Shown piece by piece: positions 834 to 58,826 of a stretch of 64,000 nt of DNA (positions are counted from its first letter, which is position 1; each line of letters opens with the position of its first letter). The notes under the pieces are model-generated. The model worked only from the letters and a program-made list of their open reading frames with translations, was not told the origin of the DNA and did not search any database. The position numbers and the translations under genes were made by a program. The DNA is from an uncultured Vampirovibrio sp. (GTDB lineage Bacteria; Cyanobacteriota; Vampirovibrionia; Gastranaerophilales; Gastranaerophilaceae). The stretch is from contig CAZCZF010000002.1 in the NCBI GenBank assembly GCA_964503025.1, positions 2,999-66,998 on the forward strand. Reading direction: 5' to 3'.

Positions 834-1769
834 ATGAAATTAGATATAGTAAAAAACAGATTTTTATTCTTAGCAATATCTGCAATCTTGTTGTTGCCGG
901 GGATTATAGCAATGATATATTCAACAATTACTTATCCTACGCATACTCCGCTAAAGGTTGGTATTGACTATACCGGCGGTACGACTTTGCAGTATGGTGT
1001 AAAACAAGACATTTCAAACGAAAAACTCGGAGAAGTAAGAACATCTTTGGAAGAAGGCGGAATTAATAATCCGTATTTGCAAATTATACACGTTAATTCT
1101 CAGCAAGATACCGAGTTAAAATCAATTTTATCTATAAGAACAAAATTCATAGCAGAAGGCTCTGCCGAGCAAGAAAAGATTACGGAAATTATCAATAATC
1201 AATTCACTTCGCCACAGTTGGTTCAAGTTACTTCAGTCGGTGCAACGTTAGGTTCTGAATTGTTTAAAAACTCTATGATTGCGCTTTCTTTGGCATTATT
1301 GGGAATTATTGCATATTTAACAATGAGGTTTCAATTTGATTACGCGCTTGCGGCAATCTTGGGGTTGGTGCATGACACAATTTTTGTATGTGGTGTATTT
1401 TCAATACTTGGCTTGTTCTATGATGTACAAATCGACGCTTTGTTTGTAACAGCATTACTTACGGTAATTGGTTTTTCTGTACACGATACAATTGTTGTAT
1501 TTGACAGAGTGCGTGAAAATTTGAAATACTATTCTAAGAAAATGTCTTTTGGCGAGATTATGAATGCAAGTATTAATCAGACTCTTGCAAGAAGCGTTAA
1601 TACCTCAATTACAACATTGATAACATTGCTTGCTCTTTATTTCTTGGGCGGTGTAACAACAAGAGATTTTGTTTTGGCAATGATTCTTGGTATTGCGATT
1701 GGTACTTATTCAAGTATTTTCTTCTGTTCAACTCTGGTTGATATTTGGGAAGATAAAAAAGCTGTATAA
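834..1769 (+). CDS. secF: Protein translocase subunit SecF
   Basis: GIDYTGGT, VGATLGSEL, GFSVHDTIVVFDRVREN motifs; follows secD. Confidence 0.96.
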   Translation: MKLDIVKNRFLFLAISAILLLPGIIAMIYSTITYPTHTPLKVGIDYTGGTTLQYGVKQDISNEKLGEVRTSLEEGGINNPYLQIIHVNSQQDTELKSILSIRTKFIAEGSAEQEKITEIINNQFTSPQLVQVTSVGATLGSELFKNSMIALSLALLGIIAYLTMRFQFDYALAAILGLVHDTIFVCGVFSILGLFYDVQIDALFVTALLTVIGFSVHDTIVVFDRVRENLKYYSKKMSFGEIMNASINQTLARSVNTSITTLITLLALYFLGGVTTRDFVLAMILGIAIGTYSSIFFCSTLVDIWEDKKAV

Positions 1770-1783
1770 TTAATATGATAAAT

Positions 1784-3257: not shown

Positions 3258-4064
3258 ATGAAATCAGTAAAAGAAGTATCGGTAGAGTCAAAAATTTTAA
3301 AGCGATTGCAGGATTACCCCAATTGTTTAAAGCTTGTGCATTATTTATTTGATGATGAAGAGCTGCAAGAGATGCAGGATTATGCAAATAATGTTTCAAT
3401 CAAGCGTCTTGGGTATAATGACCATGGTCCTGTGCACATGAGACAAGTGGCTGCGAATTCAATCAAAATGCTCAATATCCTTCACGAATGTGGAATAAAA
3501 ACCTCACTTGAAACAGAAGAAATCGGAACATTTGAGGATAGCATGTGTGCAGTAATTCTTGCGGGGCTTATGCACGATTTGGGTATGATGATAGGCAGAC
3601 AAGGACATGAAGAAATGTCTGTCATTTTGGCAAAACCGCTTATTGAAAGAGCTTTAATGGCAGTTTTTCCGGATGATTTGCACAGGCGTGTTATAATACG
3701 TTCTATTGTAATTGAAGCAATTATCGGACACATGTCATCAAGAAAAATTCATTCTACGGAAGCCGGAATAATATTAATTGCTGATGGTTGTGATATGACA
3801 AAGGGCAGAGCAAGAATTCCGCTTTCAATCAATACAACTCCGAAAGTTGGAGATATTCACAAATATTCTGCGAATGCGATTAACAGAATTAGGATTCAGC
3901 ATGGTGAACGCAAACCTATTAAGATAACGGTAGAAATGTCTGCGGAAGTCGGATTTTTCCAGATAGAAGAAGTTTTGATAACGAAGATTGATTCAAGCCC
4001 TGCAAAAGAATACGTTGAATTATTTGCGGGTGTTGAAGGTGAAGAATCTAAGTGCTATTTATAA
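3258..4064 (+). CDS. HD-domain phosphohydrolase
   Basis: HGPVH, LMHDLG, GHM and ADGCD metal-binding motifs. Confidence 0.85.
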   Translation: MKSVKEVSVESKILKRLQDYPNCLKLVHYLFDDEELQEMQDYANNVSIKRLGYNDHGPVHMRQVAANSIKMLNILHECGIKTSLETEEIGTFEDSMCAVILAGLMHDLGMMIGRQGHEEMSVILAKPLIERALMAVFPDDLHRRVIIRSIVIEAIIGHMSSRKIHSTEAGIILIADGCDMTKGRARIPLSINTTPKVGDIHKYSANAINRIRIQHGERKPIKITVEMSAEVGFFQIEEVLITKIDSSPAKEYVELFAGVEGEESKCYL

Positions 4065-29846: not shown

Positions 29847-30692
29847 ATGAATAAAAAAGATATTTTTGAACAATTTTTAGGTTTTATAAAATTACACGCA
29901 GATTTTATAATTGGAATAATTATTAATGCGATTATAATTTATGTTTTTCTGAGAATAACTGATACATTTACTGCAAAATTTGAAAAACGTTTGCGTGATA
30001 GAAATCCGGATTCTCCGTTGTTAAATCTTATGCCTGTGCTTACAAGAATTTTTAAAGCTGTAGTAATATTTATGCTTTTAGCGGGATTTTTACAAAGTTT
30101 CGGATATAATGTTTCATCCTTGGTTGCAGGTTTCGGAATTACAGGTTTAGCAGTCGGTTTTGCGGCAAAAGAAGCAATCGGTAATGTTTTTGGTTCAATC
30201 GGACTCCTTGCTGATAAAGTATACAAGGTAGGCGAGTATATTGTTTTTAATGGATATGAAGGCACTGTGGAAAACGTTAATTTACGCTCTACCACTATTA
30301 GAACTTTAGAAGGGTTCAGAGTTAATGTGCCAAATAACCTTCTTGCGAATGAAGAAATTACAAATGTTTCTCAGGCAAATCAACGCAGAATTGATATTTC
30401 TGTTGATGTTGAGTATGGAACTTCTAATGACAAGCTTGACAGAGCGTGCAGAATATTAACGGAAATTGCAGAAACAGATAAGGATATCAAAGACGGCGCA
30501 ATTTCTTTTATTGATAATATGGCGCCAAGCTCAATTGTTGTAAGACTTGTAGCATATACTCATCTAACAACTTGGGCGGATGTAACAATTGTTAAGAGCA
30601 GAGTTTTGCGAAAAATTATACACAAATACAGAGAAGAAGGAATTGGTTTTGCATTCCCTTCTACAAGTGTGTATATCGAAAAAGGTGAATAA
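29847..30692 (+). CDS. mscS: Small-conductance mechanosensitive channel family protein
   Basis: AGFGITGLAVGFAAKE, VGEYI, EGTVENVNLRSTTIR, GIGFAFP. Confidence 0.88.
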   Translation: MNKKDIFEQFLGFIKLHADFIIGIIINAIIIYVFLRITDTFTAKFEKRLRDRNPDSPLLNLMPVLTRIFKAVVIFMLLAGFLQSFGYNVSSLVAGFGITGLAVGFAAKEAIGNVFGSIGLLADKVYKVGEYIVFNGYEGTVENVNLRSTTIRTLEGFRVNVPNNLLANEEITNVSQANQRRIDISVDVEYGTSNDKLDRACRILTEIAETDKDIKDGAISFIDNMAPSSIVVRLVAYTHLTTWADVTIVKSRVLRKIIHKYREEGIGFAFPSTSVYIEKGE

Positions 30693-41673: not shown

Positions 41674-41702
41674 TTGATTTATGATTTTGTTTCAAGTAAT
41701 AT
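41674..41702 (+). promoter_or_regulatory. Sigma70-type promoter upstream of the tRNA-Pro locus
   Basis: TTGATT-N17-TAATAT. Confidence 0.6.
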
Positions 41703-41746
41703 AGTCATGCACTGGTCGTTGAATCGCGCTTGTGTTTGAAAATTGG

Positions 41747-41761
41747 ATATCGGGATGTAGC
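41747..41761 (+). repeat. 15-bp direct copy of the tRNA-Pro 5' end plus 4 nt of leader
   Basis: ATATCGGGATGTAGC at 41747-41761 is identical to 41881-41895. Confidence 0.9.
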
Positions 41762-41884
41762 AAGGACTCCACGGAAAACGATTAAGTATCGTTTGTAGTG
41801 GAGGGAGGCGAGTCAGTAAGCAAAGCTTAATGCGAGCCGTATAAAGATCGACCAAACTGCATTCCAACTTCGAAATCTGAATAT

Positions 41885-41961
41885 CGGGATGTAGCGCAGT
41901 TTGGTAGCGCACCTCGCTTGGGACGAGGGGGTCGCACGTTCGAATCGTGTCATCCCGACCA
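41885..41961 (+). tRNA. tRNA-Pro (anticodon TGG), CCA encoded
   Basis: CGGGATG/CATCCCG acceptor stem; anticodon arm CCTCG-CTTGGGA-CGAGG; T loop GTTCGAATC; ACCA end. Confidence 0.97.
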
Positions 41962-41964
41962 TTT

Positions 41965-41996
41965 AAAAAAGACTTGCAAAAGTGCAGGTCTTTTTT
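41965..41996 (+). terminator. Intrinsic terminator after tRNA-Pro
   Basis: AAAAAAGACTTGCA-aaag-TGCAGGTCTTTTTT. Confidence 0.85.
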
Positions 41997-42022
41997 GTTT
42001 TTTGTTTATATTTTAGTCTTTT

Positions 42023-42146
42023 TGACACGATTCGAACTTCGAGGTTTGGTGGATATCTCTTTGAGGTCTGCTTGTAGATATACGTTGTATTAGCGGTATT
42101 AGTTTTGCAGACCGACAGTATATCTACGTGTGTAGCACTCGTGTCA
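42023..42146. repeat. 124-bp miniature element bounded by tRNA-derived inverted repeats TGACACGA/TCGTGTCA
   Basis: 42023-42037 is the exact reverse complement of tRNA-Pro 41938-41952; internal inverted repeats GTAGATATAC/GTATATCTAC and GGTCTGC/GCAGACC. Confidence 0.65.
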
Positions 42147-42204
42147 TCCCGACCATTTAAAAAAGACTTGCAGAAATGCAGGTCTTTTTTGTTTTTTTGT
42201 TTTA
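42139..42204 (+). repeat. Direct duplicate of the tRNA-Pro 3' end plus terminator
   Basis: Matches 41945-42009 except for two loop substitutions and one T-run indel. Confidence 0.92.
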
Positions 42205-42259
42205 TTTATACATTAATTTTAGTTAATATGTTTTGAATTGTAAAATTTTGTTATTTGGT

Positions 42260-58664: not shown

Positions 58665-58686
58665 TTTTCCAACCTTTTTTATCAAT

Positions 58687-58717
58687 CCCTCTCCTTGAGG
58701 AGAGGGTTAGGGTGAGG
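58687..58717 (-). repeat. BoxC-like palindromic repeat
   Basis: CCCTCTCC-ttga-GGAGAGGG followed by TTAGGGTGAGG; minus strand reads CCTCACCCTAACCCTCTCC... Confidence 0.7.
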
Positions 58718-58751
58718 TGTCAACCAACCCCGCCTTGTCGTTTTACGTTGA

Positions 58752-58826
58752 GGGATGCTTGTGTTTATATATTAAATTGGTAGTTTGTCCAATGCATCCC
58801 GACCCAATATCTACGTGCGTAGCACT
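58752..58826. repeat. Segment sharing three motifs with the tRNA-Pro locus
   Basis: GCTTGTGTTT...AAATTGG (cf. 41728-41746), CATCCCGACC (tRNA 3' end), ATATCTACGTGCGTAGCACT (19/20 identical to 42120-42139). Confidence 0.65.

Follow-up and report, generated by a model that had tools for sequence, protein, structure and literature searches.

Why the gene for tRNA-Pro(UGG) should be bordered on both sides by partial, and partly inverted, copies of itself is the question posed by a 64,000-nucleotide stretch of DNA from an uncultured Vampirovibrio sp. of the Gastranaerophilales (assembly GCA_964503025.1, contig CAZCZF010000002.1, positions 2,999 to 66,998; hereafter the window). The flanks of this gene are one instance of a family of cassettes found beside tRNA genes throughout the gut Gastranaerophilales. 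The explanation that we judge best, and hold with middling confidence, is that these cassettes are locally duplicated tRNA ends built around small folded modules and probably transcribed with the tRNA. An earlier, sequence-only reading of the window had proposed a family of non-autonomous, tRNA-targeting elements of ~120-190 bp, with ends that mimic the T-loop and with related, inverted members on the two flanks of the gene.

Three of the four repeats claimed in that reading are real and lie far beyond chance. Upstream, the copy of the tRNA 5' end is exact over 15 nt (41747-41761, ATAT followed by CGGGATGTAGC, identical to 41881-41895); it comprises four leader bases and tRNA positions 1-11 and forms the core of a 27-nt direct repeat (41735-41761 and 41869-41895) with 85% identity at a spacing of 134. 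Downstream, the copy of the 3' end and terminator is a 69-nt direct repeat (41945-42013 and 42139-42207), 93% identical at a spacing of 194, which includes tRNA positions 61-77 and the terminator. The downstream cassette, or trailer, is a duplication unit of 194 bp with three parts: the 3' end of the tRNA, the terminator and a body of 125 nt. The inverted segment at 42023-42037 (TGACACGATTCGAAC) is the exact reverse complement of 15 nt of the tRNA (positions 54-68, at 41938-41952), and the 9 nt at 42015-42023 (AGTCTTTTT), ending on the first base of this T-arm antisense, are the reverse complement of the 5' flank of the terminator. The fourth repeat, an inverted likeness between the upstream and downstream inserts, is not significant, since its best local alignment score of 12 was equalled in 227 of 2000 shuffles. 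The words common to both inserts are TTCGAA and GTTTGGT. The latter is the tRNA D-loop, and TTCGAA has different origins on the two sides, being a variant of the AU-rich leader motif TTGAAAAT upstream and the T-loop downstream. The idea that the two flanks are opposite-orientation copies of one element thus falls with the insert similarity on which it was based.

The upstream unit, or leader, is no mimic of the T-loop: it repeats the 5' end of the tRNA and bears a conserved hairpin in place of the D-arm. This hairpin, termed Z, is ~45 nt long and consists of ACUCUGCCGA, a stem, a UAAAU-type loop, a stem and GAGAGGUA. Z or its variant X is found 40-280 nt upstream, and on the same strand, of 10 of the 39 tRNA genes in this genome. 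Ahead of the hairpin, the tRNA 5' end is repeated in sense as far as position 8, 11 or 18/19, and thus the hairpin occupies the place of the D-arm. Self-copies of at least 10 nt lie within 400 nt of 13 of the 39 tRNA genes; chance 10-mers are expected at ~0.1 per gene, and most matches are much longer. The upstream insert of tRNA-Pro(UGG) has a 92% copy before tRNA-Pro(CGG) (C55:325-424, contig C55) and an 80% partial copy before tRNA-Leu(GAG) (C52:11055-11102). At tRNA-Pro(CGG) the whole architecture recurs with every piece matched to its own tRNA: the 5' end is present in two copies and the 3' end in one, the D-loop variant of this tRNA has its antisense, and its T-arm is repeated in inverted form. 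Partial tRNA copies without any module are found at the tRNA-Arg UCU locus on contig C48 and in the third unit of an array on contig C46. The expectation of multi-copy, tRNA-linked families of small non-coding units is therefore borne out, the upstream family being present at 10 tRNA genes here and at hundreds across the order.

A covariance model of Z (R1), built from seven copies, is revealing of its structure. Covariation was assessed on 125 model-verified copies, 106 of them distinct, in which 95.4% of stem cells are paired compared with 48-60% in slid controls. Changes on both sides of a stem pair occur in 262 cells versus 71.5 +/- 8.7 in shuffles. The covariation resides in the two inner helices; the outer CUCU/AGAG helix is invariant, but its bases were fixed by the pattern used for fetching. 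On the Z strand G-U pairs outnumber A-C pairs (15 versus 4), a weak hint that the structure forms as RNA on that strand. Across the genus-level hits, which were found by the model alone, Z shows strong conservation at its unpaired nucleotides, and tandem G-A pairs occur in many copies with Watson-Crick pairs in their stead in others. The X hairpin before tRNA-Pro(UGG) at 41763-41808 matches R1 over its full length and so belongs to the family, but lacks the GCCG bulge; forms intermediate between X and Z exist in genomes G023 and G006, and comparison of copies shows compensatory changes in the X stems. Hammerhead, K-turn, box C/D, boxA/boxB, attC and 5S loop E structures were compared with Z by eye and none fits. 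A search of Rfam release 15 at relaxed thresholds, covering the window region, nine cassette loci of this genome and loci L039, L040 and L204, matched only the tRNA model, and no published description of Z or of the cassette family was found in the literature. Z is thus a real structured family without previous description, and this well-supported, unannotated motif, of which there are hundreds of copies, merits a curated model.

An R1 scan recovers Z in all 25 genomes of the genus (2-19 copies each), and outside the genus in 2 of 16 genomes of the order, both of family f8, with none in the other 14. A pattern scan of public genomes returns mainly gut assemblies of Candidatus Gastranaerophilales / Melainabacteria. 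The orthologous tRNA-Pro(UGG) locus was compared in eleven species, in eight of which the same upstream gene is visible (G000, this genome; G004, G006, G008, G010, G014, G015 and G017). Ten of the eleven carry the leader cassette in the order tRNA 5' copy, Z or X, spacer and tRNA, with 1-3 copies, and it is kept even though the surrounding spacer is unalignable. At locus L033 the 5' copy has the species-specific base of its own tRNA at position 9. The remaining species, G008, has the promoter and the tRNA without a leader cassette. Occurrence of the leader at the same locus in ten of eleven species looks like vertical inheritance, and this argues against the repeated targeting that had been envisaged.

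The trailer unit, termed Y, is present in G000, G004 and G015, in the last as a tandem with a period of ~194, and absent in G006, G010 and G014; the trailer site is empty at loci L033, L036 and L041. Together with the missing leader of G008, these provide the empty-site orthologues that the sequence-only reading had called for. Other 3'-end duplicates, each with its own terminator, occur in G008, G016, G017, G023 and G037. A locally matched inverted T-arm piece is found not only at tRNA-Pro(UGG) but also on contig C55, in G015 and in G037, where the piece in each unit matches the T-arm just upstream. One trailer unit of G037 has a UGG-type 3' end behind tRNA-Pro(GGG). Tandem arrays hold 2-4 units, with amplification in G015, G016, G017 and G023. 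An artefact of metagenome assembly has to be considered for repeats of this kind, which break short-read assemblies: the genome is in 135 contigs, a run of N (a scaffold gap) lies inside the cassette array before tRNA-Val(GAC) at G000:C4:2090-2260, and several contigs of related genomes end within arrays. Nevertheless, independent assemblies of many species show equal architecture at the orthologous locus, and the family is present in a record titled as a complete genome, so that the chance of an artefact is close to negligible.

These loci could also be regarded as neutral by-products of template switching at hairpin-forming DNA and of slippage, with a functionless hairpin carried along. As this explanation would have it, each locus is pieced together from short tRNA segments, some sense and some antisense, the loops at sense-antisense junctions are only 1-3 nt at tRNA-Lys, at tRNA-Met (contig C16) and in G023, and tandem copy number differs among species. 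The inverted T-arm piece, moreover, always matches the adjacent T-arm, as expected of quasi-palindrome correction by copying. The covariation of the Z stems, the strong conservation of unpaired Z nucleotides in genus-level hits and the retention of the cassette at orthologous loci amid unalignable spacer all argue against a hairpin that does nothing, and we therefore consider a purely neutral origin improbable.

The orientation of Z follows a strict rule. Among the 73 copies with a tRNA or transfer-messenger RNA (tmRNA) gene within 600 nt, 69 point at that gene: 45 lie upstream in the same orientation and 24 downstream in the opposite orientation, with 4 exceptions. Read on the Z strand, the downstream units consist of the acceptor 5' strand, Z, a short hairpin and the T-loop, and the 3' acceptor strand is absent. 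The Y unit of tRNA-Pro has an equivalent layout on the minus strand (acceptor 5' strand, body, T-loop), tRNA-like and pointing at tRNA-Pro. Because these layouts are shared, a single description can cover all cassettes: tRNA-like units that are truncated, carry a module at the D-arm and turn their 5' end away from the real gene.

Such a rule is suggestive of a strand-specific process on cloverleaf-like DNA, and the modules (Z/X, Y and a further module, W) may alternatively be small non-autonomous mobile DNA that inserts in the D- or T-loop DNA of tRNA genes, with only those events surviving that duplicate the interrupted end. The family has many copies, some of them not beside a tRNA and one on a viral contig; direct repeats border the orthologous sites, empty as well as filled; different modules sit at identical loop positions, W in both orientations; and the UGG-type 3' end behind tRNA-Pro(GGG) in G037 indicates transfer between loci. 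Like repetitive extragenic palindrome (REP/REPIN) and miniature inverted-repeat transposable element (MITE)-like repeats, they are short, multi-copy, non-coding hairpins with compensatory stem changes and sometimes in tandem. Unlike REP/REPIN repeats, Z is tied to copies of tRNA ends, obeys the orientation rule and is detected in only 2-19 copies per genome. Neither the terminal inverted repeats nor the fixed target duplication of a MITE or DNA transposon is found; the flanking duplications range from ~10 to >50 nt and the 3' ends of units are not conserved, which also speaks against the tRNA-targeting elements proposed earlier. Partial tRNA copies without a module (on C48 and in the third C46 unit) and the leader shared by ten of eleven species are likewise difficult to reconcile with mobility. 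Mobile modules are, on balance, a lesser possibility that nonetheless carries some weight.

A trans-acting enzyme with a matching distribution, for which the sequence-only reading had advised a search, does not emerge from the two candidates considered. The REP-associated tyrosine transposase (RAYT; PF01797) is present in 17 of the 25 genus genomes, absent from 8, and absent from both Z-bearing genomes of f8, and was rejected as a mobiliser. Reverse transcriptase (PF00078) was rejected as the mobiliser of a retroelement, being present in 11 of the 25 genus genomes and absent from genomes with 12-19 Z copies (G005, G009, G015, G016 and G023). The RAYT-like gene of this genome (G000:C26:12398-12766, PF01797, 36 bits) is flanked by hairpins of its own (GTAGGATGGGTG...) and not by Z, so Z is not a REP/RAYT family member by this association or by distribution. 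The surrounding region (G000:C26:12200-12860) has the gene between inverted GTAG-type hairpins (GTAGGATGGGTGGAACAATTGTCATTCCACCCATC) that form a separate REP-type family. Unusual 5' processing due to loss of RNase P RNA was also rejected, since this RNA was found in every genus with or without Z; the seven genomes without a hit are spread over Z-bearing and Z-free groups.

Integration that targets tRNAs classically leaves direct repeats of the 3' end starting within or close to the T-loop, and scars of prophage or island integration, with replacement ends and later near-total deletion, would be a further explanation. The trailer resembles such attachment-site duplications in its 3'-end direct repeat from near the T-loop and its intact tRNA, and the differing proximal and distal terminators of G016, G017 and G023 could reflect imported DNA. 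It differs from them in that the repeat spans the terminator, the 5' end is duplicated as well and a hairpin module is present. No integrase or transposase lies inside or beside the tRNA-Pro(UGG) region, no integrase and cargo lie between the repeats as in an integrative element bounded by attL and attR, and the inserts measure only 107 nt and 125 nt. At tRNA-Pro(UGG) the duplicated block has the same type of terminator and so looks like duplication in place, the T-arm piece is inverted and apart from the 3' copy, and 5'-end duplicates with a conserved hairpin at 10 tRNAs are not expected of integrases. Integration scars are hence highly improbable. The statement that nothing coding lies inside the region holds for integrases and transposases, but not entirely, as a minus-strand open reading frame of 77 aa (41679-41912) overlaps the upstream insert and the tRNA-Pro 5' end.

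The variable duplications, the unconserved 3' ends, the module-free copies and the lack of a matching enzyme or integrase favour local duplication over dedicated transposition. In anatomy, each cassette reproduces one end of the adjacent tRNA in shortened form, with a small folded module as its core. The leader presents sense positions 1-11, a diverged Z hairpin in place of the D-arm and antisense to positions 12-21 and 2-6, and the 194-bp trailer duplication begins with antisense to positions 54-68 and ends with sense positions 61-77 and the terminator copy. Under the duplication explanation, cassettes may arise and multiply through local partial duplication, their identity to the adjacent tRNA may be maintained by gene conversion or template switching, and recombination between the repeats could account for clean loss. 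Selection would keep the conserved hairpin.

The cassettes are probably transcribed together with the tRNA. A promoter-like site upstream of the leader has 8 of 12 matches, below the threshold of the promoter scan; CTTGAtt-N17-TAAAAT or a near variant is found at the equivalent position in orthologous loci L019, L033, L041 and L075 and is visible in all eight loci with the shared upstream gene. This conserved promoter would drive the leader cassette as part of the pre-tRNA. Promoter, leader cassette, tRNA, terminator, trailer cassette and second terminator, in that order, form a composite unit that we take to be typical of the gut Gastranaerophilales. Sense and antisense segments in such a transcript could compete with folding of the tRNA. 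Antisense of at least 9 nt to the first 36 nt of the cognate tRNA is found in 37.5% of 32 leaders versus 4.2% for non-cognate tRNAs, and antisense of at least 10 nt in 28% versus 1.4%. In the predicted fold of the leader alone, the antisense at 41851-41865 (ACCAAACUGC-AUUCC as RNA) pairs with the 5'-end copy. In the predicted minimum-energy fold of the precursor (-79.2 kcal/mol, z -4.6) it pairs with the real D-arm and the 5' copy takes the 3' acceptor strand. The leader antisense might thereby pair with either partner and affect folding or processing of the precursor. For the T-arm antisense of the trailer, likewise, two alternative partners are predicted, the real T-arm over 15 bp and the 3' copy downstream over 8 bp.

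A bolder extension is that the cassettes are built-in riboregulators of tRNA biogenesis, with a D-arm clamp in the leader, a T-arm clamp in the trailer, decoy tRNA-end copies that mask these clamps and Z as a sensor or protein-binding release module. Both halves are present at tRNA-Pro(UGG), and in the predicted fold of the precursor the decoy 5' end has already moved into the acceptor stem and the clamp is paired with the D-arm; we nonetheless consider this extension rather unlikely. If the cassettes do act as RNA, they would represent lineage-wide control of tRNA maturation from within the tRNA's own transcript, for which we know of no described equivalent. If instead they are selfish or neutral, they show a way in which single-copy essential tRNA genes can tolerate and accumulate structured DNA at their loops, namely by duplicating the interrupted end. 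They would then also point to unusually active duplication in a gut lineage that has received little study.

Several observations weigh against cassettes that are transcribed with, and act on, the tRNA. What the sequences show is the anatomy of the cassettes, the family and its covariation, the orientation rule, presence and absence among species and the enrichment of antisense; transcription of the cassettes and any role as RNA are what we infer. The covariation fits an RNA hairpin or a single-stranded DNA hairpin alike and the G-U excess is modest. Where Z lies downstream, it is on the other strand from the tRNA and would be antisense in read-through transcripts, a poor fit to a function in cis as RNA, and a terminator separates the tRNA from the trailer unit. 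Several leaders, for example that of tRNA-Val, have no antisense segment. Finally, 52 of the 125 verified Z copies have no tRNA or tmRNA gene within 600 nt of fetched DNA; some of these are at contig ends, others lie between genes in DNA rich in repeats, and one is on a viral contig from IMG/VR.

Among the closest known systems are the 178-bp repeats of Escherichia coli tyrT, the source of rtT RNA (rttR). The tyrT units are co-located with the tRNA transcription unit and end in tRNA 3' nucleotides. The cassettes are alike in that units downstream of a tRNA each end in a 3'-terminal copy: here there is a 69-nt repeat with CCA at 194-nt spacing, and at least two units in G015. The resemblance is one of anatomy only. 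There is no homology of sequence or structure, and Rfam, which is believed to include rtT, gave tRNA matches only. Here, moreover, each unit has its own terminator, an inverted T-arm piece is present, a cassette lies on the 5' side and many tRNAs are involved across the order. Mutually exclusive pairing is the logic of attenuators, and like leader attenuators and tRNA spacer RNAs (such as the 3' external transcribed spacer of glyW-cysT-leuZ) the cassettes belong to a tRNA unit, are non-coding and may function as RNA. Unlike attenuators, they have no identified pair of terminator and antiterminator, the competing partner would be the tRNA body, and the pairing is predicted only. For the rtT RNA itself, a preprint (bioRxiv 10.1101/2024.07.17.603846) states a probable link to the processing of that tRNA's transcript.

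The features of the locus are collected in Table 1. The neighbouring genes on the minus strand encode a thiamine pyrophosphate (TPP) enzyme of the acetolactate-synthase type and a major facilitator superfamily (MFS) transporter.

Table 1. Coordinates of the tRNA-Pro(UGG) unit, its two cassettes and a remote relic in the window.
Feature	Position	Strand	Basis
Promoter-like TTGATT-N17-TAATAT, upstream of the whole leader	41674..41702	+	Read from sequence; conserved in orthologues
27-nt repeat, left copy: tRNA positions 1-11 (41751-41761) preceded by 16 nt of AU-rich leader	41735..41761	+	
X hairpin, diverged member of the Z family	41763..41808	+	Covariance model R1, 21 bits, E 3e-5, full model
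Small second hairpin, TAAGC-AAA-GCTTA	41817..41829	+	Predicted folds; the C55 copy keeps the hairpin with a different loop
Antisense ACCAAACTGC-ATTCC	41851..41865	+	Complementary to tRNA positions 12-21; also to 2-6 with one G-U pair
AU-rich leader motif, right copy (TTCGAAATCTGAATAT), adjoining the tRNA 5' end	41869..41884	+	27-nt repeat
tRNA-Pro(UGG), intact	41885..41961	+	ARAGORN; Rfam tRNA model, 65.2 bits
Terminator 1, intrinsic, symmetric with A- and T-runs	41964..41997	+	
Inverted copies of the terminator 5' flank (42015-42023) and of tRNA positions 54-68 (42023-42037)	42015..42037	+	
Y body: hairpins 42065-42071/42107-42113 and 42074-42083/42118-42127; T-arm-like hairpin 42124-42146	42038..42138	+	
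Second copy of the 69-nt repeat: tRNA positions 61-77 including CCA (42139-42155) and terminator 2 (42158-42191)	42139..42207	+	
Remote relic: decayed tRNA-Pro-like GGGATGC...TTGGTAG...GCATCCCGACC fused to the Y terminal hairpin (ATATCTACGTGCGTAGCAC)	58751..58825	+	

The AU-rich motif of the leader, approximately (A/T)CAATTGAATA or TTGAAAATTGAATAT, occurs 9-45 nt upstream of many tRNA genes in this genome, including tRNA-Pro(UGG), and a related AU-rich motif, TTGA(A/C)AAT..AATA, is likewise found ahead of many. The leader motif also precedes tRNAs that have no cassette (Arg-ACG and Ser-UGA) and could be a processing or protein-binding signal. A promoter reading of this motif was dropped because its distance to the tRNA start varies over that range.

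The predicted fold of Y has an energy of -42.9 kcal/mol (z -3.2), and ends homologous to those of Y are found in G015, G004 and G003; a consensus structure of its body was not recovered from six sequences. The start of Y (window 42022-42053, TTGACACGATTCGAACTTCGAGGTTTGGTGGA) aligns weakly with the Z model (6.5 bits, E 0.2) with the apical hairpin missing, and may be a decayed Z or a chance match. In the remote relic, the match to positions 93-125 of Y is 82%. No tRNA adjoins the relic, which is 17 kb away from the tRNA-Pro locus and could be what is left of an old copy of tRNA-Pro or of a unit that has moved.

Close to this relic, at window 58686-58730, is a GC-rich hairpin repeat (CCCTCTCC-TTGA-GGAGAGGG-TTAGGGTGAGG) that is also found at loci L193, L149 and L189. 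In other Gastranaerophilales, Z occurs within GC-rich repeat clusters with no nearby tRNA, and there the GAGAGG strand of Z replaces the GGAGAGGG arm. The copy of Z on the viral contig (L204, IMGVR_UViG_3300011008_000426, 3444-3496, minus strand, 50.7 bits) lies between two genes that appear by eye to be phage-baseplate-like; the contig has no tRNA gene, and the flanks of this Z resemble the D-arm of a class II tRNA.

Other modules are associated with partial tRNA copies. Module W (GCGCGAGUGAGCUGAGG, a hairpin, CGUUAAACGCGAACGAGCAAGACA) is ~90 nt long, its ends pair and it has no Rfam match. It is found in either orientation within the T-loop of partial 3' tRNA copies, at G000:C3 ~160-270 nt downstream of tRNA-Arg(CCU) (29858-29936, minus strand) and at loci L040 and L075. 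At locus L039 (G017:C4, ~1590-1770, minus strand), W replaces the segment from the 3' side of the anticodon stem to the T-loop of a tRNA-Leu(GAG)-like gene, in which ARAGORN calls no tRNA. Upstream of tRNA-Met on contig C46 of this genome (G000:C46, 1886-1962, minus strand) are three tandem partial copies of the 5' part of tRNA-Met, two with a module V in the D-loop (CCUGAGUGAACGCAGUGAACGAUUUACAGAAAAUG) and one without a module.

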